Source: Candidatus Omnitrophota bacterium
GTDB taxonomy: Bacteria; Omnitrophota; Gorgyraeia; Gygaellales; Profunditerraquicolaceae
Reading direction: 5' to 3'
Length of the DNA stretch: 64,000 nucleotides
Assembly (NCBI GenBank): GCA_028717245.1
Contig: JAQUOD010000002.1
Span: 76,772-140,771, forward strand
This document shows, piece by piece, positions 331 through 24,300 of the stretch (the stretch's first letter is position 1; every line of letters starts with the position of its first letter). Made by a program: the position numbers and the translations under genes. The notes under the pieces were generated by a model. The model searched no databases. It was not told the origin of the DNA and saw only the letters and a list, made by a program, of their open reading frames with translations.

Positions 331-3300
331 TTTGAAGCTGTGGAGAAATTATATGAAGAAAAGAATTATGCGGATGCCATAGAGGCATATACCCGGATAA
401 TCAAACTAGCAGAACAGATGAGTAAACAGTCTGGTTGGTGGGTTACTAAATACGCATATTTTGGGCGAGGGATGTGTTATGTAAAACTTGAGCAAACCGC
501 AAGGGCAAGAGACGATTTCCTGATGTCGATAAAGAATGGTAATGACGCTTGGTCTAGCATTATGCTCTTAAAGTTCAAAGACGCCTCGCTATTAAATGAA
601 ACCATAGATAAGATTTTAGAAGTAAAGGTTAATGAAAAGGACGATGTGTATGCTTTAAGTAGCCAAGCATATTGCTTGTTAGATTATGCAAGACGCACAA
701 AGGGAACAGCAAGGCAGGCGCAGTTATTAAATAAGGCAGGGGAATGTTTTAAAGCAACAGTTGGAAGATGGAAAGAGGTCAAATACGAAGAACATGAAGA
801 AACGACCGAGAAAAATATAAAAGAGATAGAAAGCGAGTTAGCCAAATTAACAGGAAACAGGGACGGTTCTAACGGCCCGGCAGCACCCAAAGATGCTTCA
901 GCAAATGGATTACCCAGGCCGCTGGTGAATATAGCGGTGAAATTGTCGCAGTTATTAGCCGGCAAAAATATCAGGGATTGGGCGTGGAGGTTAACGGATG
1001 AAGACTTAAATAGAATACAGACGGCAGCAACTTTATTAAAAGATAAAGGATGCATAAAGGATGAAGAAGAAGCAATGGGTATCCGGTTTATCCGTGCCCC
1101 GCCATCTTGGCTGCTGAAGATTTTATGGAGAATTATTAGTGCTGTAAATTATGTGGATGCGCAAGGAATCATTTACATAATCCTGCCTGGAAATGCCCCA
1201 TCCTACAAGATTGCCCATGAAATCTGGGCAGTATTAAATGATACAAAATATCATACAGAAAATCCGATAAAACTCGGTAAAGATAATTCAGCCCAGCCGC
1301 AAGCCACAAAGAAAGCTACCACGCCAGACCCATCCGCCGCGCCAGCCCAGGTAACCCCCACCCGACATAATATTCTGTTATTCGGCGCAATAATTTTAGC
1401 TGCAGCGGTGTTCGGCGGATTGAATGTTTCGTTTGCTTATGCCTCAGCTAAGGCAGGGCAAACAGGAGAAGGCATTGCATTAGTTATTATTATACCTCTT
1501 GTTATTATCGGGTTTAGGTATTGCTTGCCATATATAATTAGAAATTGGCAGAGGCAAAGAAAGCAAAAGCTTAGCCGCAGACTCGGCAATTATAGGGATA
1601 AAAGCGGGGAGGCAGCTGTCATAAAGGAAATTGAGGGAATAGCAGAGTATAAAAATCCGGATGATCTAAAGAAAGTAAACGCTCTTATCGCATTATTATA
1701 TTGCGGGACTCCGGATATACAACAAGCTGCAGCGCAGGCCTTAGGTGAATTAAAAAGTGATAAAAAAGCAATTAAGAGGGCAATGCGCGTTTTGTCTAAA
1801 ATAGCTTGGAATAGCGGTATGGATAGTAAAACCAATAACGCAGCGGAAAAAGCTTATTTTAAGTTAGCGGATGAGATGGACTTAATAGAAAAAATAAAGG
1901 CCGCAATAGATGGTAATAAAGAAGCAAAAGAAGAAGCAATAGAAGCTATTTACAATAAGGCAGATGGGATAAATAAAGAACTTATTGTTCACAGCCAGGC
2001 AGTGTATGTGGATTTCTACGGTTGGGTAGAGCACTTAATAAGGAATGGGCATAGCAAGTCTTTGTATATGGTAATTACAGCACAAAGAGGAGAATTAAAA
2101 GAAATTAAGTCATTAGTAAATAAAATTATTGCTATACAAGGACGTTTCGAGAGAATTGAGCAAAGACACGGCGCTCTTTCTGAAGAAGAACTCGATGATC
2201 TCGATATAGCCGGGTCATGGTTTTATGCCGCTGATATAAATGAATTAAGAAAGTGTCTGAAGATTTTTAAAGATTTTACTAAGAGAAACGGGAATATACC
2301 TCTAATAGATGCCCTTAAGAAAATTGCGATGGTAGCGATGAGGACTTTATTCCAGCCGCGGGGGGAAAGAGTAAAAATAGGAAGTAGAACGCCGGAAGAC
2401 ATAGTTGATATGAAAACTAGAAGCCTGAGGATGCCTAGGGAAGAAGCGGATGCTTTAATAATACGAGGCAGGGTCATAGGTGTTAAAGATGTTTGTTGCG
2501 AATTGCCGGCTATGCGCGAAACTCCCGATATGGCTGAGGTGGCGGGTAATGTGCCGGGGGGTGATTATAAGATAACTAACGCAGGGTCCGGCTGCTCAAT
2601 ACTTAAAACTATCGAGGTGACATCCTGTTTAATTTTAGCAATTTATGATGACAAAAATCATGTAGGGCTTCTGGCGCAATTTCCTTATTTTTATTCCATT
2701 GAGGAAACCTTAGAAAAGATGCTCTCCGATTTAAAAGAAAAAGGCGCAGATAGAAATAATCTCAAGGTAAGAATTAGTGTGGGCTATACATGGTGGAATA
2801 CTCTTTATAGAGGTATGTTAAGCGAGCCAATAAAATCTTCTTATAACGGCTTTGATAATTACCTCGCTCAATATTTTGACCCGCGGGGGGCAGGGATTGA
2901 TAGGGAACTCATCGCTGCGTTTATTGATAAAAGAATCCCTGTGGAAATTATCTGGCATCCCGCAGAAGCCCGGTCTATCGCCTTTGATACTAAGACAGGT
3001 AAGTTATATAATTTGCGTGCTCCAATTGGCAGGGGGCGCAGTTTTAGCGGCTTAGCCGGTATAGCGCTTTTATTTGTAGCTGCGCTGGCGGTGGTAGATT
3101 TGATTGTGAGAGTGCCCGGACTTGAGTCTCCTATATTATTGGGAATGGCGTTTGGTATAGGGCCAACCGGTCCTTTTGGTAAGAAATATCCATATTTTGG
3201 TTCTGTAAGAGAACCGGCCAGGCAAATCTTATTAAAGTTGACCTATAACGATTTACCCGATAATGTAAAGAAAATATTTGAGGCAATGTATAGTGAGGGA

Positions 3301-6300
3301 GATATCAGTAAAGGCGCATTAGAGGTATGGGTAGAACGTACCTTCGGGAAATTTCAGGCCGAGCAGAAATTAAGGGAGGCGCTTGAGGTATTAAAAGATT
3401 TAACGCCTGAGAGACTTGAGGCCTTAGGCATTGCCAGAAGCGGTAACGGTATACCCCAAATAGGTAGTTTGGCAGGAAGAGCCTTCTTTAATGAACGGCT
3501 GGATTTGGATAGAGATATGTTAGAAGCGCTAAATGCTTTGGAAATAGTATCTAATAGAGATGTGCTTCCGGATTCCCAGTATGCTCATCTAGCCAATATT
3601 AGCCTGGTGCATTTGATAATTTTATATAAGGTTTACCGGAATAAAGTCTACAGGAGAGGATTGGGATTAAGCGAGAAGGATAATAATTTCATAGATTTCA
3701 TATATAAAGTTTACCGCGGAAGAGCGGAAACGGAAAAAATAAGAAAGTTATTTCAGAATCTTACCCTGCAAGACTTGCAAGAACTTTCTAAATATACAAA
3801 TCCTGAGGATAGGTTGAATACGATACAGCATAAATTGAAAGAAATGATTAACAAGCTTAAAAATGATTGTCCCACAGAGGGAGAGAGAATAGAAATGATA
3901 AAGGGGCTTTTAGAGGGATTACCGGCAGGGCAAGAGCCTATGTTACGCATCTTAAATGAAGACTGCGAAAGGTTAGCAAAGGCAGCGCCCCTCTATCCTT
4001 ATTTGATAAAAGCTATTTGTGACCACTACTCCCGTAAGTTCGGCAAGCATTGGCTTTTGCTTTTTGTGGCCAGAGACGCCGGATCATATTTTGAAACAAT
4101 TGACCAGATGGTTAAAGTGGGCTTGATAGATGCCATCTTTTCTATTATTTATGTAAGCGGAGCAAATTATCCCGAAGCAAGGAACGCCTTCTACCAGGGC
4201 ATTAAGACAAAAGAGGAATTTGAAAGGGAATTAGAAAATAATCCCGAACTCAGGTCAGAGGTTGAACGGCTTATCCAGCAGATGAAAGATTTGAAAATTT
4301 TAAATTATGAGCAGTTAGTCATTATGGATTCCTGGGGAACGGGGGCCACCCCTTTATTTATGAAATTGACTATGGAGCACTGTTTAGCTGAATTAGGCAG
4401 GAGGATGAAAGTAAAGCCGATAATAAACGCAGAAATACTGGAAGTAAAGCTTAAAGAAATTAATAGCAAGGGCGAAAAAGTAAGCCCGAACACAGAAAGC
4501 CGTATTAATGTTACCACCCTATTGGAGTTACTCGATGATGAGAAACTTGATAAAGAATTAGTAGCTAAATTAGAAAATTCTATTAATGCGGTTGCGGCCG
4601 AATATAAACTTTGGCCGGTAGAACCCGGATTCCTGCCCGGTAAGCCCGAGGGCATACTTTTCTCTTATCTGCGCGCCATGCTTACCTATAATAGTATAAT
4701 TGAGTATATGAATAGTTCAAAAGGCCCGGATGATTCCGCTACCACAAACGGCAAAAATAACGCTCCTATGGGCGGCTTTGACCCGGCCCGCACAGACGGT
4801 TTGGATAGGCTCCCGGCAGAAAAAACAGAGGAAGCGCGGGCAAAGCTAAGAGGCATTATTAATGATTATGTCAGAAACTCCAAGGATGAGATTTTTGGCC
4901 TTAAGGAGATAGAGTCTGATGCGCAATCAAAGCTGAAGGTTATCGGTATATTGAAACAGGGAGGTTATCGCGATATAGCAAAAATCTTACGCCACTCCTT
5001 AGTAGCGCGCGCTCCGCCCGGATTCGGGTTAATAAAAGCAATCCAAGATTTTGAAAAAGAGTATGGTGTAATTGTGTATGCCGTTAACATCCCCGCCAAT
5101 CTTTCCCCGGTAAAGCAGAATATCATTGTAATCATTAATCAGGCAGAAGAAGAGTTAACCCCTTCTATTGCTCACGAAGCAGCCAGCCTCAAAGGGTTAT
5201 CCGATGAAGAATGTAAGGCATTTGAAGATAAATACACCCGTTTAGAAAACAGATACCTAAAAGCAGAAAACTCCGCGTTAAGAAATGAGGTTATGGTTGA
5301 TGGGCTAACCCGGTCTTTTAACCGCAGGTATTTTGACCTGTCTTTATCTACAGAAATAAAAGAGGCGCTAAGATATAAATACCCCTTGTCTTTATTGATT
5401 TGCGACATAGATAATTTTAAGCGCGTCAATGATAGCTATGGCCATCAGGCAGGGGATTCTGTTTTGCAAGAATTATCCGGGCTCATAAAGAACGCGGTAA
5501 GGGCAAGCGATATAGTCTGCAGGTATGGGGGAGAAGAATTCGTGATTATATTGCCTCATACCAGCGAGGAAAAAGCAGCGGTTGCCGCTGAAAAGATTAG
5601 AAAGATAGTTAAGATGTACAGATTTAACGCCCTCGCAGATGGCATAAAAATAGGGCTTACAGTAAGTATAGGAGTGGTGAGTTTAGGGGATTGCGTTTCT
5701 ACGGAAGAACATCTCATAAAGAGTGCGGATGCTGCCTTGTATTATTCTAAGGCGCAAGGAAGAAATCAGGTTACCCGTTATTCCCGGATGCCAAGAGCCG
5801 TCGATTCCGCCTGCGAAGCGGACAATAATGATTCTTATAAAGTCCTTGAGATGGGCGCGGGCTACGGGTATTCCTTACTTCAGTTAAGAGAACTCCATCC
5901 TGAATGGGAGATCACTGGTATTGATAAGGACAGCCTTGTAATTGAAGTAGCCAAAGAAAGCTGCGGCGAAAAGATTGAAAACATGGATGCTACGAGTACT
6001 TCCTTTGCAGATGGAACGTTTGATTTAGTCATCATAAATTATCCTTTGGATACCAATACGGTCCTGAACGGTTTCTTGAAGGAGGCGTGTCGGGTTCTCA
6101 AAGTGGACGGAAGAGTAGAAATTGTGACTGAGGCTCCTCGCTTTGGTAATCATTTCTCGGTTGAGCAAGCAAACATTTTACTTTCTGAAAATGGCTTTAG
6201 GAAGATAAAGATAGGCCCGCGGCCAGCAGATTATCCTAAATCTAATTTTGATTATCTTGACCTTGATCCTACCGGAAAATTCCACCCCATAAATCCGTTC

Positions 6301-9300
6301 CTTATTGCCGGGTATAAAAAGTCTTTCGCGCCCGTTCCCGGATTGAATATGCCTCCGGCGCAGGAAACGGGAGAAAATGCTCTCGCTCAGCTTTTTTTAA
6401 ATCGCTTATATACGGCTGCTAAGGAGAAATCAGGGGTAAGGGCCATGGCGATGGTGGATACTTACTTGAAACTCTATCTTTATGATTCCGTGCCTGTTGT
6501 GGCTTTACCCGGCTCTTTTACGTTAGAGCTGTTTAAAGGAAAAGCAACGCAGGAACAGTTAGAGCAGATTAAGGCCGTGAAAGAAATATTATCCATACCC
6601 GAAATTAGCGCGTTGACCGGGCACGATAAAAATAAGGAGAACGAATTCCTGACTAAATATGTTTATGCACATTTTGCGTCTCTTAAAATTGGAAAAAAGC
6701 AAAGCATCCTTTCCATATTGCCTTTTATCGGTGCCACTCTTCAAGGGGCAGTAATTCAAGGAACAGCTTATTCGTCCAACATCCTTAGCAGTCCTATTTT
6801 CTGGGGGTTAGTGGTTGCGGTTGGTTTGACAGGTGCATTGGTTTATATGGTTAGGAATTGGGGGAAAGTTAAAGATGTTCTAATCCGCAGCCCGCCTGCC
6901 TTAAAGAAGGCAGTTTCTGTCTTTGCGGCGGCATTAATATTTATTGCCATTCCTGCGCTTACTTTTACCTGCACGCCGCAGTCCGCTACACCGCCTATTA
7001 TTCCTCCAGCACAAGAACAACCCGTAATTCCCCTCACAGAGGAACCCGTAAACATAAAGATTGCCCCTGGAGATGTTGTTGCCGAAGAGCTAATCAAGAC
7101 AACCATAGCTAACCTTTCTTCTTTACCCACTCGTTATATTGGCACTCCTGAGAATATAGGAACCGCAATATTTATAAAAGACCTGCTAAAAACATATGGC
7201 TATAAAGATGCAAAGAACACTAATAACGAACCTTATTATTTGTACAAAGAGTTAGAAAGCGGCATACCCTTATATGTTGCGGCAGTTATTCCAGGAAAAG
7301 TTAACGGCGCGAAAAATATTATCCTCTCAGCCCATTTTGATGCTTTTTATGCCGGCGCAGATGATAATGCTTCGGGCGTTGCGGCGCTGTTAGAGATATC
7401 AAGGTTATTAACAAATACGCATCCTGATAGCGCTATTTATGTTGTATTTACAAATGCTGAAGAGTTTGACGGCTTGGGAGTAAATTCCTTTATTAAAGAT
7501 ATGGTTGAAGAGGAGCGCGTAGAACCAGCGAATAGTATAGTGTTGGATGTTGATTCCATTGGCCAATCGCACCTTAGTATTGAGGATAATAATGGAGAAA
7601 ACAGAGAACCCCGGATTTGGATAACTTCAGTAGATGCTCCGAACCAGATAGAGCCAGTATCCTTATATTACGATACTTCATTGCCGTATAAATTATATGT
7701 AGACTCCAATAAAATGCAGCCACTCTCCGGCGAAAGTAATGCGTGCGTGTTTGCTTATTATGGATTTCCTGCAGTAACTATTTCTGGCATATCGCGTTCA
7801 CAAGCCCAAGAAGTTAAAATCTTTCATACAACCAAAGACGCTTATGGCCGGGTATCCACCGAAGCAGTTAATAGTATTACATCCTGGTTATTAGAAGTTG
7901 TATCCAAGAGGTCAGGTTTATCCGAAGAAATAAAATCCGCAGAAAGTGTGCTTATTTATTCCGATTTGAAAGTTGAAACTTCTGATTATACGGATAATTT
8001 AAGTATTTCATGCAATAAATCGGGTTTTGACTTTATGAATTTGGGTGATTTTGTGGTATCAGAGAGAGGTTACTCTATGGTTTCCGAGTGGACAGAGTTT
8101 TTAAAGAAGAGGTTCCCAACGTATGGTGAATATTTAAAAGGGATTAAATATGGTTATATAAGAGGCCAGTGGGGGGTATCTGGTAATACAGTTGCACACG
8201 CAGATACAAACGGAGGTATAATCGAGGTCGGATTTCCTTTGGAACCTTACCCGATGCGTAATGGTTTATTTGTTTCTTCTCCGTATGGAGGGCATTATTT
8301 CTCTCCTGAAGTTGTAATAACGCATGAATTGGGGCATCTAATTTTGGAGAAAAAGTTTGGCATAGACAAAGGCCAACCGGCATCTGTGGGTGTAAGCAGC
8401 AAAATAGAAGACTTAGGTTATAGCATTCCTTATGTAAATCAATTAGACGAGCTCATAGTTACAGATCTTGCATATAAGTTGTTATACGGAAGAATACCAA
8501 CCGAAGGATATTTTACCGGAAAAATATTCGAATCAAAGGATTACGGCTCTAAGATTAATTGGGAAAGTGTAAAAATAGATTTAAGTTCTACTGAAGAAGC
8601 AAGAGAAGCATTTCTTAAATACTTATTTAATGAAATAGGAGTTGATCAAGATACAGATTTGTTAAAAGAACCTGATTTATCTATTTCAAGATACATTCCA
8701 TTTTTACCCGTTGGAACCGTTATCTCTGGCGGGATTATAGTAAAACCCGAAGATGTAAAAGACGCAGGACCATTCTTCCCGAATTCATTATTACCTACTG
8801 TTATCCCGCAGATGTTATTGCCGGTTGCAGGCGCAATTAACCAGAGAAATAAGAGACTTGTTCAGAAAGGCAAAGTTACTATATTACGTTCAATCATTGT
8901 TGTTTTAGTGGGCCTGGGTGTGGGGCTTGGTGCGTGGTTATCGGCAGCTTTCTTTGGCCCTTCAGCTCCTGTTAACGCCGCCGAGCTTCAAGCGGCAGTA
9001 ACTCCGGCGGAAGCTTCTTCGTCCAACATCCTTAGCAGTCCTATTTTTTGGATAGGAGCAGGGATAGCTGGATTAATGGCTGCGTATCGCTTGGGCATAC
9101 TTAAGAAGGCCTGGCAGGTTGTCCACAGGGCTCTCAGCCCGCCTGCTTTGAAGAAAGCTTTCCTCGGCTTCATAGCATTAGTGCTCATTTCTATTTCTGT
9201 ATCTATCTCATCCTGCAGCTGTAAACCAGAATCAACTCCAACGCCGCCTGCCGCTATAGAAAAATCGGCTCCACCAATTTCAACATCTATTGCGCCAGCG

Positions 9301-12300
9301 CCAACCGCACAGGCGCCTATCTCCCAGAAAGATATTTTAGCTATTACCAATTGGCTGAAAGCAAACGTCAGCACTACCACCGGCTTACCTTTCAGCTTCC
9401 AGATACCCGAAGATAAGAAGAAAGAAGTCTATAGCCGTATGGGAGAAGCTAATTCTGTAAAGGGGATTATTGAACGAATGATTGTAAATGAAGGCTTGGA
9501 AGTATATGACGGCGCTTGCTGGGGGATACTTCTTACAGCGAGCGGCGACAATAAGAACTTAGAGTTAGCCTTTATACCTATTAATACTTATTGGAACGGC
9601 TCCTTAGGCCAGTTGCAGACCATTAGGGCGGGTTTTGCAGGAAAGAATACAGACCAACCATTTATCTATGATATAAATAGCCCTACTTCCGTATCCGCTT
9701 CTTTGGCGGATAAAGGAAAACGCGGCTTTATCTTCAGGATTATTGATGCCAATGGAAAATATAATACTGCTGACCCGTTAGATGGGAAGACTTATCTCCA
9801 AGGGTTCCCTACCTGGCCTACTATCCACTGGGAAGATTGGAAACCTATTGCCGGCGAGAACGCTTGGATAAGTATGCAGGCAGCGCAGTATCATAACGTT
9901 AAGCATGACGCCGTTTCATTACAATTAGCAGAAGAATTAGCCAGGACAGCCATATTACTGCAGGCAGAGAACGGCGGTATTCGGATGGCTCCCATTGGCA
10001 CTTGGCATGAGCAAGGTTCCGAATTTTATTATTATGAAATCTCTACGGAAAATAACCACTCTTGGTATAGTGCCTTCAGGATGCTTTATCAGATAACCGG
10101 TAAGGATATTTACAAAAAAGCAATGGAAGGAATTGAACGCTACTTTAAATCTGTTTGGGATCCGGAAACCAATACCTTCTATCAGGGCGCGCATTACACT
10201 AATGGCCGGTGGGTTCTTAATAAGAGTGACTTTGCGGAGGATTGTCAGAGCTGGGGAATTGATGTCTTAGGGCCGCAGAAGATAGATTCCTGGTTTGGCG
10301 AAGGCGCCTCTTATAAGATGTGGAAGAAGACCAAAGAATTATCCGGATATTATCAGGGGAATAAATTATTGGGCGTGGGGTACACCGCTGAACATGATCA
10401 GCTTTCAGTAGAATGGACAAACGGTGGGATTTTTGCTACCAGAGAGTTAGCTACTTATTATCAAAATACCCATCCAGATTGGGCAAAAGAATGCGCTGCT
10501 GATGCCCAGAGCATGAGAGATGGAGTTGAGACTCTGAAACAGGAATCAAATGGCAAAACCGGTTACTCTTATTCTTTAAAGAGAGAATATATACCGTTTG
10601 GATGGTATTCACACGAACCGTCAGTTTTAAGCACTACATCTACTGCCTGGGTGGGATTTGTAGATTTAGGTTATAATCCTTTCTATTTAGGCGGAAAGTC
10701 AGGAGTAGTTCCTGCTACGGCACAATTACCGGCAGCTACTGCGAAAGCGACGCTGACTCCGACACCGACTCCAACTTCTGCTCCAATAACTCCCCAGCAG
10801 CAAGTGAAAAAGGCATTAGAGGTAGATTTAGGAAACTTACAATATTATTCCGGCACAGGCTGGGCTTCTTGCGCTGTGGACGTGGTCAATATTGACGCTT
10901 CAGGATACGATACGCTTAGAATTAAGGCATCAGGCAAGGCAGGGGATAAGTTTATTGTGCAGTTGCTTGATTCCTCTATGCACGATGATAGTTCAAGCGG
11001 GATAAGTTCAACAAAGGCCCTTTCCGGTAGCTCTCAAGAAGTAAATATACCTCTTTCAGAATTCCGCGGCGTAAATCTAAAGAGCGTGCGCCGGATTGCT
11101 ATCCATTATGGCCGAAGCGCCTGGGGCAGTGCTCTTAACCCGCAGGGAGCAGATATCGGATTAAACGGCATTACCTTTATTTCAACACGGACAGCCGGAC
11201 TTCTGCCGGTTGCGCCAACCACAGCTTCATTACCTTCTGTTCCTTTAGCCACTATTCCGTTAAATATGCTTCTAGCGTTGGCAGTTGGGCTTATCCAAAT
11301 AAAGAAAAGAAACAGCAAAATAAAAGGTTCTAATGTCGGACTCCTAAAGAAATCCGCAAAAGAATCTTTACAAGGTAAATCTAACTTTATAGGCGATTTA
11401 GCTATTAAGGCATATTTAACGAAGGGTTGCCTGTCAGGATTAAACAGGAGAGCGGCGATAGGAATACCTGTCGCGCTTATGCTCGCAGTAATCCCCGCCA
11501 TAATGCAAAACATCGAAGTTCGGGCGCAATCCGGGACATTACAGATAACCCCGCCAAGTAATCCACAATACGCTTCAGGCACGAATTGGGCCGCTCGTTG
11601 GGTAGATGTAGGAAATATCAATGTTTCAGAATACAGCGTTTTAAGGCTTAATCTATCAGGCAATGTTGGAAATAACTTTATTGCACAGTTATTAAATACC
11701 TCTATTACCGATGATAATAGTTCAGTTGGCAAAAGCCCGGTATATACTCTGACTGTTGCTTCTCAAGACATAGATATACCTCTTTCGGCATTCGCTGGCG
11801 CTAATTTGAGTAGTATTCGCAGGATTACTGTCCATTTCGGCGCGACCGCTTGGGGGAACTACCTTAATCCTCAAAACACAAATATAATAGTAAACAGGAT
11901 TGCCTTTGTTGACACTATTGCGCCTGCTATCTCCATAGTTGCTTCTTCAAACATCACCAGCTCTTCAGCGGTGATTACCTGGACTACCAATGAGCCAGCA
12001 GATTCGCAGGTAGAATACGGCACCGGCACAAGCTACGGCTCAACTACCAGCTTAGATGCTGCTTTAGTCACCAGCCATTCAGTTACTCTCACAGGCCTTG
12101 CACCCGGCACTACCTATCACTACTGCGTAAAGAGTAAAGATGCCGCAGGAAATCTCGCTCCCGGAACGGACAATACCTTTGTTACTCCTGCAGCTCCGAC
12201 TCCCACTCCGACGCCTACGCCTACACCGACGCCTACGCCGACACCTACACCAACTCCAACTCCAACTCCAACTCCGACTCCGACACCGACACCAACGCCG

Positions 12301-15300
12301 ACACCAACACCAACGCCTACACCCACTCCGACGCCTTCTAAAATAAAGGGAGTTACCTTATCCACGGTACCCAAAGGGAAAACCGATAAAGACTTAATTC
12401 TCGATTTAGCCTCTGTGGGCGAAGCCAATATTAAATTAATGTCTCAAGCAGGAATAAATACAGTAAGGACCTATTATCCTCCTTCCGGAGACTTATTAGA
12501 TGCCTTTGCCAGATATAATATAAAAGTAATTATAGGATTCCCGAAGGATGATTTGAGAAATATTCTTGAACAGTATAAGGCGGATATTAAAGGAGGCAAA
12601 TACAAAGATTACATAAATCAGTATAAGAATCATCCTGCGGTCTTGATATGGGAGCTGGGTAATGAATATAACCTGCATCCGGAGTGGTTCGGCGGGGATT
12701 TAAACAATTGGTGGTCAATGCTGAAAGACGCAACCACTGTAATCCATAGCATTGATCCTAATCATCGGGTATCCACTACTTTAGGATACGCGAATTTATC
12801 CAGCGATATCCCGCAAGTAGTGGCTGCGGGCGTTGATGTGATTGGCTTAAATTACTATGCAGGGGGGGATAATTATTCAGCTGCGGTTACGGAACTAAGG
12901 GCGCTTACAAATAAACCCATCTATTTTTCCGAAGGCGGGACAGACTCTTACAATAACAGTATAAATAAGGAGAGTCAAGCTGAGCAGGCCCAGGCAGTGG
13001 TAAATATTTGGAATTCAATTAAAGATGCGGATGTTTTGGGGATTACCTTTATGACTTGGCAGGATGAATGGTGGAAATCCGGAAATCCTGCTGCCCAGGA
13101 TATGGGTGGATGGCCTACTCTTGCTGCCTATGATAATTTTATAAACGATGAATGGCTGGGCTGGAAAACTATAGACAAAATACGTAAATTGGTTTTAAAT
13201 GAAATTGCTAAGCTGTGGACAGGGGCGCCTCTGCCAGCAGCGCCTGTTGTTTCACCAATTGTCCTTTCTGGTATCACCACTGGCTCAGCTGTAATTACCT
13301 GGGAAACCGATGGGCCAGCGGATGCGCAGGTAGAATATGGCATCGACACAAGCTATGGTTCAGCCACTACCTTAGATGTTGCTTTAGCCATCAATCACTC
13401 AGTTACTCTCGCAGGCCTTGCCTCCGGCACTACCTATCACTACCGCGTAAAGAGTAAAGATGCCGCAGGAAACTTGTTTACCAGCAATGACTATGTCTTT
13501 AGCACTCTTGCGCCACCTGCTCCGCCTTCAGGCGGCGGCGGTGGTGGTGGAGGCGTAGCACCGATAAACGCAAACAAGCCTCCGGTAATAAAAGATATAC
13601 CGCCACTCAACTTAACTCTCGGCCATAGAAGGCTTCCTATAAACTTAAAGGATTATGTTTCTGATGATACGACCCCCGATTCTGATTTAATCTATAATTT
13701 TAACCCCGCTGATTTAGACCCCGATGTCAACGCTACTTTAACCGGCCCTATCTTAACTATCAGCGCTCCGCCGACTTGGGAAGGGCCGACTTCGCTGGAT
13801 ATCACGGTAACGGATACAGGAAAGGCCTCTGCCTCATATACATTGACGATAAAAGGTAAAGCTAATAAGGCACCGGGAGTAATAAAACCTATACCGCAAT
13901 TAAATTTCTTTACCGATAGGAGAAAAGACAGCAGAGACTTAAAAGATTATTTCTTTGACGAGACTATTGTGTCTCCTTTGACTTACCGCCTTGATAAATC
14001 TTCGTTAAACCCCGATGTCAACGCTACCTTAACCGGTTCTATCCTGACTATCAGCGCCCTACCGAAGTGGGGAGGCACAACTTACCTTAATATTACGGCA
14101 TCAGATACAGAATTAGATACTACATATAAGTTAACGATAACCGGCGAGGCTAATAACCCGCCGGTAATAAGAACAATGCCGCCAATCGCCGTCTTCGCTG
14201 TCGGCAATAAATGGCCCGGCATAAACTTAGAGCAATATGTTTCTGATAAAAACACTGCAGCGTCCAAATTAAGCTACGAAATCATTAATCCCCAAAGGAT
14301 AGACTCCCGCTTGAACGCAACTATTGATGGCAGCCATATTTTACATATTTCTACCTCGGCCAATTGGAAAGGCACAAGCAGCGTTACGCTTAGAATAGGC
14401 GACGGGGAATTGTCAACTGACTGTACTTTAAATGTTTCTGTTAACACCGAAATCCCGGCTCCCACGCCTACGCCTAATCCGATACTTCAGCCTGTTGTTG
14501 ATTTATGGCAGAATACCTGGGTTAAAGTAACTGTGGCAGTAGTAGGGGTAGCCGTTGTATTTAGTATTATCCTTGCTTTCTTAATGAGGATAAGGAAACA
14601 GGGTGGAAATGTTACTGCTTTAGGTTCAATGATTGCCGGCTTAAGTTTCATTGCTGCTGGAGTTCTGGCAGGCTTATTTATTCCTGTCGTCGGTCTCATT
14701 GTGGGCGGGCTACTGGGCGCCGCAGGAGCCTTCTTCATCGCCCAGGCAATGGCAATTGTTTATGCCTTTGTAAAGCAAGGCGGAATCAGGGGCCAGCCGC
14801 GGTATAAGTATCTTACTACTCCTATTGCCCAGCCTACTTATCGCCATCTCGCCTTCAAATATTTGCCAATAATATTCAGAATCTCCATTAACCGCCACGA
14901 ACGGACCCACTTTAAACACAAAAGTGAGATAAGGGCTTACCTTAACCAGGCCTTATATCTAATACCAGATGCTATTAAATCTACGAAAGAATCCATAAAG
15001 GAATCCGCAAAAGAAGCCTTGAAAGGTAAGCCTACCTTTATAGGTAACTTAGCTCTTAGGATTGCATTAACCGAAGATTATTTACCGCGGTTCAGCAGGA
15101 GAGAGGTAATTGCCATACCAGTTGTAGCTGTAATAATTGCTGGCGCAGCAATTCCAGCTATAGTTCAGACTGTTGAAGCGAAGGAAGAATCCGAAGTAGT
15201 TGTTTTTGTTTTGGATAGCGGAGAATATTTTGATTGGCAAGATGCGGTAACGGTTATACTTAAGGATGAGTCTAAGAATATACCGGTTGAAGATACCATG

Positions 15301-18300
15301 AATAAAGTTCATGGTAGCATTGTAACGAAAATTATTAAAGATGCTTGCAGTGGTGCGAAGATAATTTACAAAAATGTTGGCGTAATTAGACCTTCTATAT
15401 ATATGCCGAATGAGAAAAAGTTTATTATCCCCGGTTTTACAGTATCTGTTGTGAAATATCTAACGGAATTAATAGACATTTTAGACTATGTCAAAGTTCA
15501 TCCGCAGGAAAAAATATTAGTTAATATGAGTTTCGGTAATTATGAATACGATCCTTTAGAGTACGCAGTCATAGAAACTCTCGCAGAAAAGGGAGTGATA
15601 TTTGTAGCGGCAGCAGGTAACGATGATACTGACGAGCCTATGTATCCTGCTGCATATGAAGAGGTGATTAGTGTTGCTGCCGCAGGCGATAAATCTAAAG
15701 CGGAATATTCAAATTACGGAGAGACTGTGGATATAATGGCAAGAGGTAAATTTGAGGCAGAAATATTACCCGGGATGGGAATTACATTTGGATTTGCAGG
15801 AACTTCTATGGCAGCTCCTCGAGTGACTGGTTTATTAGCCAGTATGCTTATGGAGAATCCTGAGATTTCTGCTCAAGAGGCAAAGGGGATAATTTTAAAA
15901 ACAGCAGATCCTATGAGTGATCCGCTCTATAAAAAAGGCATGTTAGGAGCGGGGATAATAGATAGCGATGAAGCATTATATGAAACTTCAGAAATAGTAT
16001 TTTTTAGACGGTATCCATCCGGTGTAATTAAGAGTTGGGTAGCACAAGGGAACAGCATATATTCTGTATTCTTATCGCCTGATGGAACAAAATTAGCCCT
16101 GGTTTACAAGGATAAAAATATAGAAATCATTGATTTTGCTAGTGGAAATGTTAAGGTTACCAATGAACGTGCCGATTACGCAAGTCCCATCGCCTTTTTA
16201 CCTCAAGGAGAAACGTTATTCTTTATTAGTAATAAATCTGTAAAGATTATGGATCTCGCTACGGAAGAAGTTAGAACTATGGATGTGCCTAGAGGATATA
16301 TAAGCGATATCGCCTTCTCGCCCGATGGAAATAAACTTGCGTTGAGATTAGGAATAGAGGATAAAATCGATATTTTAGATCTTGCTACCGCAAAGTTGGA
16401 AACCATCGCTATTCCATCAAGCATTATTAGTATCGTATTTTCTCCTGACGGAGCTAATCTGGTAACAAGCTGTTATAATGGGAGTATATATGTTTATGAT
16501 TTAAATGCCGGAAAGGTTAAAGAACTGATAGGATATGAGGATACTTTTGATTTAGTATTTTCCATGGCCTTCTCGCGTGACGGAACTAAATTAGCCTTGG
16601 GTCATGGTACGGGTAATATAACTGTTTTAGACCTAAATGCAATAACGGCTAAAGTGCTAAAAGGGCATATAGATTCAATAAATACTATTGCTTTCTCCGC
16701 GGATGGGGCAAAATTAGTTTCAGGTAGCGTAGATAAAACTATAAGGATTTGGGATTTTAATAAAGAAGAAACCGAGACAATAAGAGATACTAATGAAATT
16801 CTTGCTGTTTTTTTATCGTCCGATGGTAATACGTTGATATCAGCGACCGGAAAAAACGTCAGAGCGTGGGATTATAAAAATATTAAAGCGTCAATAGATA
16901 AATTTAATTATTCTGAAAGACCATTCAGTTTTTTAGAGAGATCTTACATCCTTTCTTGGTGGGAGGGGCTAATATTTTCTGTTTCATCTTGGTGGGAGGG
17001 GCTATCTCTTGGGATACAGGTTTTAATAGTTTCTATCGGTCTCATAATACTTCTTGTAATAATAGATGAGTTAAATAATAGAAATTCTGAAAAAAACGTT
17101 TCTGCAAGAGGCTCTCTTATGGCAGGAATGGCTGCTTGGGTAGCCACAGGTATTATTTTAACTATACCTTTTATTTGGTCAATGATTCCTATGGTAGTAA
17201 TTCTTCCTGTTGTTTTATCGTTGTTTAGTTTCGGAGCTATATTCATCTACAAAGGGATAAGGATTTGGTTAACTAAGGCAGAGGCGAGCCGTGCGCCACC
17301 CACAAAAAAACAGCTTGAAGAATTAAAGAAAAGGATTGGAACTGGTTATAATCTAACGCTTCTTCCCCACGATGGTAGAACCGCCATCGCCTATGTTAAT
17401 AATAAGCGAGTACATATTGACCTATCTCGCTTCTATTATCTCTCCACTCTGATTCAAAAATCTATTCTTGCCCACGAGCAAGCCCATCTTAGAGGCCATG
17501 GCGAAATAATAGCATATTTTAACCAGGCCTTATATTTTATAACCAATATAATCAAAGATATTAAATGGTTACGTAAAGCCTACGACACGTTAAGTAAAAT
17601 AAGAATAAGAATACCTTGGCAAATACCCATCATTAGTAGCTTCATTACTTTGTTTGTATATGGCCTATTCGTATTTTGTAAAGGTGTCCTTGGCGTCATA
17701 CTCTATAACCTCGAGATATCTTTTATTAATGTTTACGCTAATTTATCTTATAGTACTGTTATCAGAGAGCTTACTCTTATTGATGTAGGGAGAGCCATTA
17801 AATCAATTGGATCTCTTCTCGCTCCCGTTACTGCAACCGTGAATTTCCTCTTTCCCTTTGCAATGGCAGGAATAGTAATACTTATGGTCGTTACATTCAT
17901 TGCAAAATGCCAGGATATTTATATCGGTTTACCTAAAGCCCATGTTTTCCATAAGGCACAAAAGCCATTGGTTAACCTCTATTTATCCTTAGAAGGGGAG
18001 AATTTAGAAAATAAGGTACAAGAAGAAATAAAAGATTTACGAGAACAGGTAGAAAATAAACAGATTTCATTAGGAGAGGTTTATTGGCGGGTAGCGAATA
18101 TATGCGAAGGAGCACTTAAAGAAAGAGACAGGGTAAAGAAGGACGCACAAAAAGAAGGAAAAGCTGGCGCAGCTTCTACGTTTGAAAACTGGAACGAGAC
18201 ACAAATAAAAGCTATAGAGCAAATCTGGCAGGATATTCAGGGGGCAGAGGAAGGCAATATTAGCAATATAAGTAAACTTGCCTATGAATTGATAATGTCC

Positions 18301-21300
18301 GGCGGCAAAACAGAATTAGCTTTCTTCATTTTAACATTATGGTATGTAGCAAAGAGTTATTTAGGCCTTGATAAAATAATTTATACCAGCTGCAACGAAA
18401 ATGCAGTAGAAGCTGATTTCGAGGCATTAAAAAAGGCATTTGAGATTATTAATATAAATGTTAACAAAAGATTAAAAGAGAAAGCAGATGAGCGGGATTT
18501 GAATGAATATGCCGCAGACGCCATTACCTTTGTCCCTTATCAGGTCTTCTCGATTGACTGGGAGAGGCATTCAATGGATACCAATCCAGTGATTAATACG
18601 GCAAAAACAGCGTTGCTGGGCTTAGAGTTTGATGCGCTCTTTGATGACCTATTTACTCCTCAGATTCTCTTAGGGGATCCCATCGGGCCGAGCGATATTT
18701 CAGACACTCAACATAAAGAAGTAATAAAAGAAGCAGTCTATTCTTATGCTGAGATACAAAGAATATATTCATTTGTCAAGGGAGAGCTTGAATGTGGAAG
18801 GGATTTTATAGTCAGGCAGTACGCTGATAAAGATGCAGAGGCGGAATCAGAAGGCGCGCGTTTTGAAACGCATTATATTGAGATTACAGAGGAAGGTTTA
18901 GACTTAATATTTAAAAAACTCGGGAATGATAACCGTTATGTAGCTTTGGTGAAAGGCTGTTTAGATGCAATGTACCTTTATCATCAAGGCATACATTATG
19001 TCACAAAGGCGGATGGCCTTCAATTAATACATACGCCTACAGGCCAGATTTTTGAAAATCGCCAATTACAGGACATCAATGTCTGGTTTGCGCTTTATGT
19101 AAAAGAAGGTTTATTCCAAGATAACCTTACGTCGGAGAATATGCGGATAGTCCTAAGTAGTTATTCCGAAACCAAGGATTATAGCAATCTTTTTTCTCTA
19201 TTGGATGCAATGGGTTTAGTCTGGGGCTTAAGCGGGACCTTGGAGCAGGCCCTTTTGGAGCAATTTGGCTATAGCGTAAAAATTATTGATGGCCAAGAAA
19301 TTGAAAAGGCAAGAAGAGGAGCGACCAAGGAAGAGCCCGCCCTGTTATATGCAGGAAAAAATTTCGCTATAGGAAAAGTAATTTTCGAGGCTAAAAAACG
19401 TGCCGACAAGAAAGAACGGGTAGTCATTTATGTGGAGGATGTAGAGAGTGCCGAAGAATTAGAGAAAAGATTTAGAGAACTTGGCATAATAGCGAATTGC
19501 TTAACTCAGGAAATGAGCCCGAAACAGATATCGGAGGTAGTAAAGAATGTCGCAGGTAGGAAGGAAGAGATTACTATTATTACTTCTTCTTCCAGCCGCA
19601 ATACCAACTTCAAATTAATTCTCGACGAGGATCACGGGGAATCAGAGGATTCCGAGTCGGCCATATTTAATTTCCTTATTCTCGGCGGAAGGGATGTCTG
19701 GCGCTGGCAGAGACAGCTTTTAGCGCGTATCCCGCGTTTGACAGGCTATAACGAAGGAATATACCATTTCGATCCTGCGCGAATTAAGAAATTCTATTAT
19801 TTAGAGCAAAGCCTATTCCAGAAATATCCTTCTGTGGCAGAGGAATTAAAGAAAACATTGCGAGGCAGAGAGAAATTAGAATTGGACTCTTTCTCTCATG
19901 AAGCAAGGTGCGCAGATAGCCTTATAGAAAGCATAATGGATATGGCAACTACGGATTATAACCAGCAGTTAGCAGAGCAGAGGATAGTGGAGAAGCCGCT
20001 TACTGTATTAAGGAATGAGTTTATTACAAGGCGGAATGAGCTTGATGACGATAGCCAGAAATTATTAGATGAGGCCTGGAGATTATTCTTAGCGAAAGTA
20101 GAAGATTTAAGGATTCTTCTGAGCGTGCCTTCAGCAAGCAAAGAAGCAACGATAGGCTATTGGGCGGTTCAACTACAAGAGGCGTTTGATAATACGGTAA
20201 TGAAGGCATATAGAGGAGAGGAATTAGAGAAAGAGAAACCCGTAGAAATCGTTGAGGATATATACGGGAGAGAAGTCGTGCCGGGTAGATTAGGGCGATG
20301 GTTAAAAGAATGTGTAATAGAAGCTTTGCGGGGAAGACCCAATCTTATAGGTAAATTAGTTGTTCGGTTATATATTTTATATAAAAATTTTGCAGCAGGT
20401 TTAAAACGTATGGTGCCCTCTTTGTCCTGGTCAACGGCAGGCACAACGGGAATAGCAGTAGTGATAGTGATTAGCGCCGTGGCTAGTACTGGCACACAAA
20501 ATGTTTATGCTCAGTCAAATAACAAAGTTAAAGTTGAAGGTTATCAATTATTAGTGGATGGCAAGCCGTATCAGATTAAAGGCATTACCTATAGCCCTGC
20601 CGGAAAAGGCACGCAGGGAGGCCAGTTCAGCCAATGGTATGAGAAGGATATCCCCTTGATGCAGGCAGCAGGGATAAATACTATCCGCACTTATGGAATT
20701 ATAACTGATAAAAATGTTTTAAAAGCATTTGCCGATGCAGGGATAAAAGTGATTGTAGGTTTTGATAATGCAAAAGATATAGCGACAGGCAACTATAAGG
20801 GTTATATAACCGAACACAAGGATGACCCGGCAATCCTAATGTGGGAATTCGGCAATGAATATAATTATCATCCGGAATGGTTTAGCGGAAATATTGATAC
20901 TTGGTATAACGCCTTAGAGCAGGCTGCCCAGGCCGCCCATAAATTAGACCCTAATCATCCGGTTTCAACTGCTCACGGAGAGGTGCCCGGTAAAGATATA
21001 GTACAAAAGGTTCCTTCGGTTGATGTCTGGGGAATGAATATCTATCGAGGCCAGTCTATCCAATCCGCGCTCTCCCAGTGGGCAAGCCTCTGCGATGAGC
21101 TCGGGATCACCAAGCCAATGTATGTTTCGGAGACAGGCACGGATTCTTTTAATAACTCTAAAGATGCGATAGATGAAGAGGCGCAGGCAGAGGCAACAGA
21201 GAATCTTTGGAGCCAGATAGACGGCTCAAGTAGTATCCATAATTCTAAGAATCCTTCTTTAGGAGTTACTTTTATGGAATGGAATGACGAATGGTGGAAG

Positions 21301-24300
21301 TCAGGAAGCCCTTCAACACAAGATAAAGGTGGTTTTGCGTTTAGCGTAGCCAGTGATAGCTTTGGTAATGAGGAATACTGGGGTTTTGTTGATATAGATA
21401 GAAAACCCAGATTGGTTTTAACTGAAATGGGTAATCTTTGGAAAGTGAAAGAAGCGGTTACGCCTGAACCTCAAGTTTCTCCTACGCCTGCAAGAGCGCC
21501 GCCTGTTACGCCAACACCTACGCCTACGGTTACATCTACACCGTCTCCAACCATAACCGCCGAGACACCAAGCCCGACACCCACTACCGCAGTAATTCCG
21601 GAAAAGACGACAGGGATCAAAGAAGAAATCAGTACGTGGGATAAGATATTAGATACTTTTAGAGAGATATTTAGTTGGGGTAACGCCGTTACTCAAACCT
21701 ATAACGGCGCTGAATTTGCTCCGGCTCCTACGTCGACACCTACGCCAACCATCAAACCCACACCTACGCCGACGCCTAAGCCTACCTTGACTGTGGGAGA
21801 AGTAATCGGCCAGAAAGACGTAAAGGGATTACAGTATCCTGTAACGCTGGAGACCGTAATTGCTATAGAAAAAGCGAAGCAGGTTTACATAGCCAGGCAA
21901 AAGGCGCTGGATGATCCCAACATCTGGGCTTATATTGAAAAAGATAACGATAACAATGATTACCCGGATGAACTGATTATCTTGAATAAGGCAGCTTATA
22001 ATGAGCTTTTGGAAAATAAGAAATTAAATCAAGAGGCGATAACTACCAAAGAAGGCGGCCTCCCCATCTATTATAAGATAACCTTAAAAGATACTGGCGA
22101 AGAGGTTCATTTTACGCCGGTAGGCGCAGAAGAAGAATTCACTCAAGCCGCTTCAGCCTTAGAAATCACTAAGGCAGCCAATGAGTCCTGGTTGAATTTT
22201 GATACCTACCCGGCATATATCACACAAGATACTAACGGCGACAGGCGGCCGGATATCGCGATTAAGCTTACCAAGAAAGACCTGCAATACCTTATTAATA
22301 ACGGGCTCCTCTTTTCAGAGCCGATAAATGATGCCCAAGGGAAGCTCTTATATTATAAGGTAACCTTAAGATATAATGCGACCTTGCCGGCAGGAGATGC
22401 CCTGAAAGCCGGTAGTGAGGTGCACTCCACCACGGATAAGGCGTTGATGGAGTTTCTTTCCGATGACCTGAAGGAGAGTCAAACAAGCATCCAGAATTTC
22501 CTGAATACTTTGGCTGGTGACAGGGCCGCAATCATAAATTTCCTGAATACTTTAGCTAACGATAAGGCCTTAATGCAAAACTTCCTAAATGCCTTAGCTA
22601 ACGACAAGGTCTTAATGCAGAATTTCCTGAATACTTTAGCTAACGATAAGGCAATAATGGAGGCCTTTGCAGCTACCTTAGCCAACGACAAAGTAGCTAT
22701 AATGTCATTTATAGACGCCGCCAATAACGGAGTTACTGATACCCAAAGGCTTCTCCAAGATGCAAGAGCAGGCGTAGGGGCAGCTCAAGCTAAAATTACT
22801 GACGCCCAAACAGAAATGGCCAAGTATGCTGACACTACTAACCCTGAAAACTACTCTATGTATCAATACTGGAATATGGTTACTTATATAAGGACAGCAG
22901 GAGGGGCAATCATACGTGCCGGTAATAATGTCAGTATTGTGGATATCAATGGCTCGGTAATATACGCTAATCCATTTGACTATAGAATGTATGTATCTGA
23001 AGGGACAAGCTATGAGCCGGGCTTAAACGGAGCGAATTGTTACGTAACCCTGATGCAGAAAGGCGGCTATATAGAAAGAGTTTCACAATATCAGATAGCT
23101 TATCATGAAGTTTCAGGCGGCGCGGTTAATTTGATTGGTTATGGAGGGTTTTCCGGAGGCACGCTTAATGTAGGCGAGAGCGTGGCTATGACCGGCGTGG
23201 ATGTTGCTAAAGCTTTCTTGAATTATATGACTAAGGGCGGGAATATGAAAGTTATGAATGACAAAGTTGTTGCCCTGAATATATTCGGTATGGGCACAGT
23301 TTATGCGCCGGCAGGGCTTAAAGTTGTTGCTTATCCTGATAACACAGCCGGGTTAGAGGGAATTAATAATATGATAGATGCTATGAATAACGATTATTCA
23401 TTTGAGGTCCAGGGCGATTTAGTAAAGTGGACAGTGCTGAATGTGGTTTCGGGCAAGGTAAGCACTTTTTCTGTTCCCGTATCCGCTACTATTGATGCCG
23501 CCCATACATTCCCCAAGACCGGCGGCTTAGGCGCGGTAAATAATATTATTACTGCTATGAATAATAATTATAGCTTTGTGGTGGGCGCTGACAATGTCAA
23601 ATGGGTGTCAGTAGATCCGGCTACGGGCAAGGTTTCCATCTTCTATACCGCAAAGACAGCAGCTGATGCGAGTCACCAGTTTCCCTCCAGCGGCGGCTTA
23701 GGCGCGATTGATAATATAGCTGTTGCCTTGCAGAATAGCTACGGTATGCATATAGTTGGCGACAGCGTCAGATGGGTAGTGGTGGACGTAAACACAGGTA
23801 ATATTATTGCTACTTTCTACACCGTCAATGTCCCTGCTGCTAATGTTGACGCAGCGCATCAGTATCCGTCTTCCGGCGGCTTGGCGGCACTTGACAAGCT
23901 ACCCATTGCCTTACAGAATAGCTACGCTATGGATATATCGGGCGACGTAGTCAGATGGAGAGTCGTGGATGTAGGTTCTGGAAATCTGGTTGCATCCTTC
24001 TATACAGCCGCGACTTCTGTTGTAAGCTCAAATCCATTACCGTCTTCCGGCGGCTTGGCGGCAATTGACAGGATACCATCTGCCTTACAAGGCAGTTATA
24101 CTATTACGCCGCTTGGCGGGGACAGCGTCAGATGGACATTATGGGATATGAAAACAGGATATGCCAATAGCTTTTTCTTTACGGCCTCAATCTATAGCGG
24201 TGACTCTGCGCATCAATTCCCGCGAAGCGGCGGCTTGGCTGTTATTAATAACCTGCTTTACGCCTTAGAAAATACTTATGTGCGGGAAGATTTAGTTGAT

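Follow-up and report, generated by a model that had tools for sequence, protein, structure and literature searches.

A predicted membrane-tethered GGDEF-methyltransferase cassette in an Archaeovorin-like giant protein of a Candidatus Omnitrophota bacterium

Introduction

Giant proteins of the Omnitrophota, described from genes of more than 90 kb, include the Archaeovorin class, which has its type protein in Velamenicoccus archaeovorus and methyltransferases in its defining domain set (West-Roberts et al. 2023, bioRxiv 10.1101/2023.11.21.568195). In the same study, GGDEF domains were "observed in many Archaeovorin sequences" and counted among the 20 commonest domains, and small pilZ genes were found downstream of most giant genes. 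The methyltransferase family PF08241 was furthermore reported in 137 of 916 long Omnitrophota proteins (10.64898/2026.06.07.730766). Here, a stretch of 64,000 nucleotides (nt) from a Candidatus Omnitrophota bacterium (assembly GCA_028717245.1, contig JAQUOD010000002.1, positions 76,772 to 140,771 of the forward strand), referred to as the window, was analyzed, in which a GGDEF domain and a directly following class I S-adenosylmethionine (SAM)-dependent methyltransferase lie within one giant reading frame. This region is probably a signalling cassette that is tethered to the membrane as part of a giant, multi-pass, Archaeovorin-like membrane protein and works by the mechanism of a cytoplasmic diguanylate cyclase.

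According to the list of open reading frames (ORFs), frame +1 is free of stop codons over 21,333 codons and open at both window ends, and all other ORFs comprise at most 208 amino acids (aa). As the window ends inside the gene, 21,333 codons are a lower bound on gene length. An earlier reading of this DNA from its letters alone (the sequence-only reading) had placed the GGDEF-methyltransferase pair inside a giant protein, which the open frame bears out. That reading had called synthesis of cyclic di-GMP (c-di-GMP) from within a structural or secreted giant protein unexpected; GGDEF domains and methyltransferases, however, had already been published for Archaeovorins, and a c-di-GMP synthase inside a giant Omnitrophota protein is hence not new. 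With the Archaeovorins the present protein shares the giant ORF, many transmembrane (TM) helices, GGDEF and methyltransferase domains, GT5 and GT1 glycosyltransferases, glycoside hydrolases, an S8 protease, HEAT and TPR repeats and PGM. Archaeovorins also have divergent SecA-like domains, whereas the SecA matches found here stay under the Pfam cut-offs. Unlike in the Archaeovorin description, GGDEF domain and methyltransferase form an immediate tandem, preceded by a 675-residue orphan region that is presumed to be an input part, and relatives were detected for neither of the two.

Among characterized cyclases, WspR (3bre, 3i5c), PleD (1w25) and Caulobacter crescentus DgcB (6ttr) share with the present domain 40-45% domain identity, the spacing of A-site and I-site and a helix that continues into the domain, which starts with DGLT. 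They are, however, 200-460 residues long, have REC or short N-terminal inputs and dimerize freely in the cytoplasm, whereas the present GGDEF domain lies within a polypeptide of over 21,000 residues threaded through the membrane and has a methyltransferase on its C-terminal side. The GGDEF protein YfiN/TpbB (DgcN), which is tethered to the inner membrane and in which the domain is likewise joined by helical linkers, is matched through NF007423 with 132.6 bits, far under the 325 required of an equivalog; the present protein has neither a PAS-like periplasmic sensor nor a HAMP domain, and the distance from GGDEF domain to membrane is about 700 residues compared with about 60 in YfiN/TpbB. The methyltransferase, in turn, shares the GxGxG motif I, the acidic end of strand beta-2, the DA motif and the FDLV strand with YcgJ (1xxl), 3mgg and the PmtA-like 8ys9, but matches no solved structure with more than about 30 bits and is missing the usual N-terminal helices before motif I.

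In sequence order, the cassette consists of a TM helix, about 675 orphan residues, a 31-residue stalk, the GGDEF domain, a 19-residue linker, the methyltransferase, about 130 further orphan residues and a TM pair, after which Peptidase_M28 follows (Table 1).

Table 1 Features of the cassette and of the surrounding giant protein; dG19 is the Hessa-scale dG of a 19-residue window, KD the Kyte-Doolittle and GES the Goldman-Engelman-Steitz hydrophobicity, AF2 AlphaFold2 and pLDDT the predicted local distance difference test
Feature	nt	aa	Strand	Basis or remark
Whole-window giant ORF	1-63999		+	No stop, runs off both ends
Two strong TM helices	1372-1527 (1372-1428, 1471-1527)	458-476, 491-509	+	KD 2.38 / 2.41; dG19 -0.55 / 0.76
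Strong TM helix	3052-3108	1018-1036	+	KD 2.77; dG19 -0.73; GES 1.97; GRGRSFSG precedes
Marginal Pro/Gly-rich hydrophobic stretch, candidate second half of a hairpin	3121-3177	1041-1059	+	dG19 +10.2; GES 1.47
Orphan, mostly helical region, presumed input/scaffold part	3178-5202	1060-1734	+	No family; inside-like composition
Stalk helix	5203-5295	1735-1765	+	AF2 helix running into GGDEF domain
GGDEF diguanylate cyclase domain	5293-5769	1765-1923	+	Pfam, NCBIfam and PDB matches, fold, catalytic residues
I-site RASD and A-site GGEEF	5500-5511 and 5527-5541	1834-1837 and 1843-1847	+	Read in sequence; aligned to WspR
Linker (19 residues)	5770-5826		+	Between GGDEF and methyltransferase; AF2 pLDDT 36-69
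Class I SAM-dependent methyltransferase	5827-6318	1943-2106	+	Pfam core aa 1943-2042
Orphan region, methyltransferase to membrane	6319-6705	2107-2235	+	No Pfam family
Marginal hydrophobic stretch, candidate TM	6706-6762	2236-2254	+	dG19 +6.1; GES 1.43; KIGKKQS precedes
Two strong TM helices	6796-6966 (6796-6852, 6910-6966)	2266-2284, 2304-2322	+	dG19 -0.28 / -0.23
Peptidase_M28	7276-7899	2426-2633	+	Pfam E 8.9e-21, profile 2-192/193
NTP_transferase	38704-38859		+	Domain match
Fucose pyrophosphorylase	42952-43386		+	Domain match
GT5 starch synthase, two copies	49879-50331 and 61984-62457		+	Domain match
GT1	50863-51351		+	Domain match
PGM	53983-54375		+	Domain match
GH77 4-alpha-glucanotransferase	58348-59979		+	E 3.6e-114

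The GGDEF domain and its expected product

Assignment of the GGDEF domain rests on concordant profile, structure and residue evidence. Almost the complete Pfam profile PF00990 is matched (positions 2-161 of 161, E 1.2e-48, 165.4 bits against a cut-off of 23.8), and the NCBIfam model TIGR00254 reaches 179.4 bits against a cut-off of 37.4. WspR, PleD and DosC are found at 1e-32 to 1e-35 in a phmmer search of the PDB, while the AF2 model, with a pLDDT above 93 across the domain, superimposes on 3ign with 1.3 A over 164 columns (Foldseek; template modelling score 0.94, normalized to the target). The I-site RASD is followed by the five residues IVCRY and then by GGEEF, a spacing that matches the RSSD....GGEEF of WspR in the alignment. 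In an alignment of 65 sequences, made up of the query and ordinary diguanylate cyclases, all invariant columns are kept (D1802, D1804, N1810, D1819, R1841, G1843-G-E-E1846 and K1917), and the column of R1921 shows conservation in 90% or more of the sequences. Hence, the claim of an apparently active GGDEF domain with intact RxxD and GGEEF motifs withstood both profile search and residue inspection, activity itself being predicted.

At the base-specificity position, the domain carries Asp. Its sequence GHQAGDSVL compares with GHLVGSQVL in GacA (6d9m), so that D1819 stands opposite a Ser, and assignment as a Hypr-type GGDEF domain making cyclic GMP-AMP was rejected for this reason. From D1819, c-di-GMP is therefore the product to be expected of this domain. 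In its codon usage, the cassette does not stand out from the giant gene.

Stalk helix and dimerization

The GGDEF domain is entered by a continuous 31-residue helix with a pLDDT of 81-94 in the AF2 model, which has hydrophobic residues at 8 of 12 a/d positions in its best heptad register. Its counterpart in the alignment with the GCN4-WspR fusion 3i5c is the GCN4 zipper, and the model of stalk plus GGDEF domain matches coiled coil plus GGDEF domain of DgcB 6ttr over 194 columns. What had been described as an upstream coiled coil typical of GGDEF dimerization is thus modelled as an amphipathic stalk helix, from which we infer that it may dimerize.

A diguanylate cyclase requires two GTP-loaded half-sites. 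The motif GG[DE]EF occurs only once in the 21,333 residues of the window, and consequently two stalks must pair if the domain is to act as a cyclase. They would belong to two separate giant polypeptides or to two fragments set free by proteolysis, and the paired GGDEF domains would then condense two GTP into c-di-GMP, with the RxxD I-site conferring product inhibition. Against this stands the fact that neither a dimer partner nor a PilZ protein nor a phosphodiesterase is seen in the window, which is attributed to the window ending inside the gene.

The same single motif is what speaks for a different reading, in which the domain does not act as a cyclase but binds c-di-GMP or GTP and serves as a module for regulation or scaffolding, with no second GGDEF domain within reach in a membrane-locked polypeptide. 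Receptor-type GGDEF domains usually have degenerate A-sites, whereas GGEEF, both metal-binding Asp, the guanine-binding Asn and Asp and the phosphate-binding Lys and Arg are all conserved here, and a stalk helix of the type that dimerizes active cyclases is present. The intact I-site could act as a receptor site, and GGDEF domains as receptors are established in the literature (for example PMC7996900); on balance, a non-catalytic role is nevertheless improbable.

For the long region upstream of the stalk, neither a Pfam nor an NCBIfam family was matched at aa 1060-1734, and a word-index search among 5.8 billion proteins returned no homologue of aa 1060-1760. A single-sequence AF2 model of aa 1290-1770, in which an input domain was sought, was unusable (pLDDT 38). 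A "RAPP" domain that seemed to recur at aa 365 and aa 1670 was dismissed as not significant (E 0.09 over 8 residues).

The methyltransferase and the tandem

The methyltransferase is recognized by Methyltransf_31, Methyltransf_11 and Methyltransf_25 of Pfam at E values of about 1e-12 (three scores of 48.5, 48.7 and 48.1 bits against cut-offs of 27, 21.2 and 27). Motif I (VLEMGAGYG), the acidic D1975 at the end of beta-2, MDA with D1996 and the strand FDLVI align to 3mgg and YcgJ (1xxl), the closest PDB matches at 1e-6. A class I methyltransferase with all of its SAM-binding motifs directly after the GGDEF domain, as previously claimed, is thus supported. The interval nt 5299-6200 given for the pair was correct as far as it goes, but cut off about 120 nt of the methyltransferase C-terminus. 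Beyond the SAM-binding core, specificity is hardly indicated: no NCBIfam family reaches its cut-off, and the top matches, BioC included, score 30-38 bits against cut-offs of 155-390 (PmtA 37.9 against 390, DVU_1556 37.1 against 155, UbiE/MenG 36.9 against 158). On its own, the methyltransferase has no homologue by word-index search, and its AF2 model, consulted for a Rossmann-like seven-strand fold but lacking alignment depth in this part, has a pLDDT of 50-74 over aa 1950-2050 and below 50 beyond. The stretch "NYPL" was considered as a degenerate NPPY amino-methyltransferase motif and rejected, as its partners in the alignments with 3mgg and 1xxl are non-catalytic positions. Judged from its motifs, the enzyme is a generic, competent SAM binder outside any substrate-specific family.

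Both domains are only 19 residues apart, which raises the possibility that they form one functional unit, in which SAM or methylation gates c-di-GMP synthesis, or a product or partner of the cyclase is methylated. In addition, PF08241 belongs to a signal-transduction co-occurrence module of long Omnitrophota proteins (10.64898/2026.06.07.730766). Such a fusion was, however, not found to be conserved. The 150 best matches among 1.84 billion representative proteins, obtained by exhaustive HMMER search, are all GGDEF-only, nearly all of them with multiple, mostly two, GGDEF domains and two proteins with a single one; this list ends at about 167 bits and therefore rules out close orthologues of the cassette rather than the architecture in general. 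Similarly, in the 120 best word-index matches no more than 54% of the query is covered and no methyltransferase Pfam family occurs, the 80 best of 550 metagenome relatives cover the GGDEF part only, and searches of genome and metagenome contigs at DNA and protein level gave no match to the window itself and returned only ordinary GGDEF genes as relatives. In the accessible portion of the text of West-Roberts et al. (2023, bioRxiv 10.1101/2023.11.21.568195), a GGDEF-methyltransferase pairing is not described. Against a functional unit also stand the generic character of the methyltransferase, whose nearest families PmtA, UbiE and BioC are all matched far under cut-off, the failure of NYPL to align to the NPPY catalytic motif, and the great variety in which domains of these proteins are strung together. 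A common function of the two enzymes is thus quite doubtful, and on present sequence data the direct tandem appears to be without supporting conservation and should not be over-read. Most simply, the methyltransferase is treated as an independent "bead" of the mosaic and not as a proven functional partner of the cyclase. That no functional link to the cyclase emerges is also a point against regarding the whole region as one signalling cassette.

Membrane topology from helices

The TM segments reported to flank the pair on both sides were confirmed (Table 1), and the side of the membrane on which the cassette lies is where the evidence divides. Confident helices near the cassette start at aa 458, 491, 1018, 2266, 2304, 2965, 3010 and 3054. 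Five lysines/arginines (K/R) lie within 15 residues after the helix at aa 491-509, which places aa 510-1017 in the cytoplasm. The loop joining helices 2266 and 2304 holds 4-5 K/R, and the helix at aa 2304-2322 resembles a signal anchor, ending in a Cys and a Pro/Thr linker. Peptidase_M28, which comes after this TM pair, serves as marker of the extracytoplasmic side. A further candidate helix at aa 1370-1388 was judged unlikely, as it contains K and D and has a dG of +6 and a GES of 0.85.

Several results count against a cytoplasmic cassette. Confident helices together with the positive-inside rule place aa 1037-2265 outside, with all flanks obeying: helix 1018 exits, 2266 and 2304 form an out-in-out pair, and M28 is then outside. 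When topology models were enumerated and scored by Hessa dG and K/R bias, this outside model scored best; among the inside models in which M28 stays outside, even the top one fell 9-10 units short of it. An inside location requires both marginal helices, aa 1041-1059 and aa 2236-2254. The former is not TM on the Hessa scale; both exceed the nominal GES cut-off of 1.0 in a TopPred-like window, and K/R-rich flanks of cytoplasmic type adjoin both (GKK..R..R and KIGKK). Yet GES values of 1.06-1.67 also occur within the S8, fn3, M28 and WD40 domains, so that the marginal scores do not discriminate. Moreover, in the alignment with the homologous TM module (aa 2990-3059), in which the stretch before the first helix appears as an outside loop, aa 2241-2262 fall on a loop, and the candidate helix at aa 2236-2254 is weakened accordingly.

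This module is a duplication in its own right (nt 6721-6930 and 8968-9177, + strand; 49% identity over 72 aa, E 3e-11). Both copies are laid out as a helix, a K/R loop with SPPALKKA, a signal-anchor-like helix ending in Cys (LTFTC or ISSC) and a Pro/Thr-rich linker, and the arrangement looks like an internal export or lipobox-like unit before each exported block.

From these helix data, two readings with an extracytoplasmic cassette can be derived. In the first one, the cassette has no GTP or SAM at its disposal and is either carried along inertly or becomes active only once it has been delivered into a prey cell or the prey cell has lysed. The strong helices at 458, 491, 1018, 2266 and 2304 by themselves satisfy the positive-inside rule in the top-scoring model, and TMHMM predicts most domains of such giant proteins to be extracellular (West-Roberts et al., bioRxiv 10.1101/2023.11.21.568195). 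On the other hand, the same authors report that TMHMM and DeepTMHMM disagree on giant Omnitrophota proteins, and call some of the resulting localizations "highly unlikely" and unreliable. Strict helix calling, furthermore, agrees with the positive-inside rule at helix 2965 only when a marginal helix around aa 2928 is allowed for, which means that strict calling is incomplete in this protein. Catalytic and allosteric residues are all intact, which argues for selection on GTP-dependent catalysis, and the composition of the orphan flanks (see below) matches that of inside segments. An extracytoplasmic cassette that is inert or depends on delivery is therefore rather unlikely. Less probable still is the second reading, a working enzyme pair exposed to or inserted into prey and using the GTP and SAM of the prey. 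If true, such a pair could drain GTP, make c-di-GMP or methylate a prey target, and this would then be the first case of a GGDEF enzyme that is extracytoplasmic or delivered across kingdoms.

Composition and the preferred membrane side

As a second approach, a composition index, defined as K+R+E+L+I minus S+T+N+G+P, was calibrated on the other segments of the protein. It ranges from 0.106 to 0.214 in five inside-assigned segments (aa 510-1017, 4924-5035, 5968-6812, 11558-12482 and 12531-21333) and from -0.179 to 0.047 in five outside-assigned ones (aa 2323-2926, 3073-3748, 3837-4842, 5055-5669 and 6832-7500), separating both groups with zero overlap. With 0.189 for the orphan region (aa 1060-1735) and 0.154 for the whole cassette segment, the region under study is inside-like. 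Shifts of the index occur at the TM boundaries aa 2266/2304 (weakly, by -0.10), 5670-5949 and 6813, the drop of 0.31 at the helix aa 6813-6831 being the largest flip in the protein; across helix 1018 the index changes by +0.10, yet both flanks stay in the inside range. For comparison, the standard deviation of the index between adjacent TM-free blocks is 0.085. A 20-residue logistic composition classifier also favours inside (P 0.77), but this classifier is weak, with 55 of 74 windows (74%) correct in leave-one-segment-out testing.

GTP and SAM, the substrates of the two enzymes, are cytoplasmic. The sequence-only reading had taken the enzyme pair to imply a cytoplasmic location and had named a predicted extracytoplasmic position as the outcome contrary to it. 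Composition index and enzymology agree with the cytoplasm, whereas the topology from confident helices gives exactly that contrary outcome; as stated, the claim of an implied cytoplasmic location is thus not supported, since it draws on enzymology and not on topology. Taken together, the cassette is likely cytoplasmic, a view that leans on enzymology and the composition index and goes against helix parity. The predicted side varies with the method.

For a cassette facing the cytoplasm, the c-di-GMP produced by paired GGDEF domains would be read out by PilZ proteins, whose genes reportedly lie directly after giant genes of this kind.

Mosaic context of the giant protein

Along the protein, TPR and HEAT-like repeats come first, followed by the GGDEF-methyltransferase cassette, Peptidase_M28 and a HELGH motif. 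The middle part comprises two fn3/PurAcPhosph_N units, a GH2_C-like match, Big_9, an S8 subtilase, a WD40 propeller and sub-threshold SecA_PP_bind and P-loop_SecA matches; a polytopic block at aa 10,122-11,557 and 8,800 residues without strong helices, bearing sugar enzymes, make up the end. In total, 65 hydrophobic windows with KD of at least 1.6 were counted, many of them overlapping, which corresponds to roughly 35-40 distinct candidate helices.

The zinc-protease-like HELGH motif (aa 2775-2779) lies after Peptidase_M28 without a covering Pfam family (nt 7276-8337 for domain and motif together, + strand). The two fn3/PurAcPhosph_N-like units are related, with near-identical cores (nt 11938-12141 and 13261-13458, + strand), and flank the GH2_C-like TIM-barrel match. 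The S8 subtilase (aa 5163-5305) and the WD40 propeller directly after it (aa ~5331-5631) belong to a segment for which export is predicted (nt 15487-16893, + strand); S8 domains have been proposed in the literature to cut giant proteins into pieces. SecA_PP_bind at aa 6290-6358 (20.2 bits, cut-off 23.5) and P-loop_SecA at aa 6444-6546 (20.9 bits, cut-off 27) lie about 90 residues apart (nt 18868-19638, + strand), which fits the divergent SecA domains reported for giant Omnitrophota proteins, but both are sub-threshold. Further downstream, the helix at aa 6813-6831 ends in VYA-QS, resembling a signal-peptidase site, and a GH2_C-like segment comes next (nt 20437-20754, + strand). The last ~8,800 residues carry a glycogen/starch-type enzyme set (nt 38704-62457, + strand; Table 1), with no strong TM helix in that part. 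A weak match to CheD, a chemoreceptor deamidase, in NCBIfam at aa 862-934 (nt 2584-2802, + strand, E 0.0065) is probably noise, as Pfam does not confirm it. No NUDIX domain was found in the window, beyond which the gene extends.

Implications

The conflict between helix topology and composition offers a concrete, small and expressible test case for deciding which parts of giant proteins lie inside and which outside. GTP- and SAM-dependent domains are good internal markers for the calibration of topology predictors, and the composition index could be an independent topology check for giant proteins. With regard to the organism, an active cytoplasmic cyclase would mean that the giant protein is more than a surface or digestive machine and also reports to the cell via c-di-GMP. 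If true, prey contact or the assembly state of the protein could be coupled to PilZ effectors in this way.

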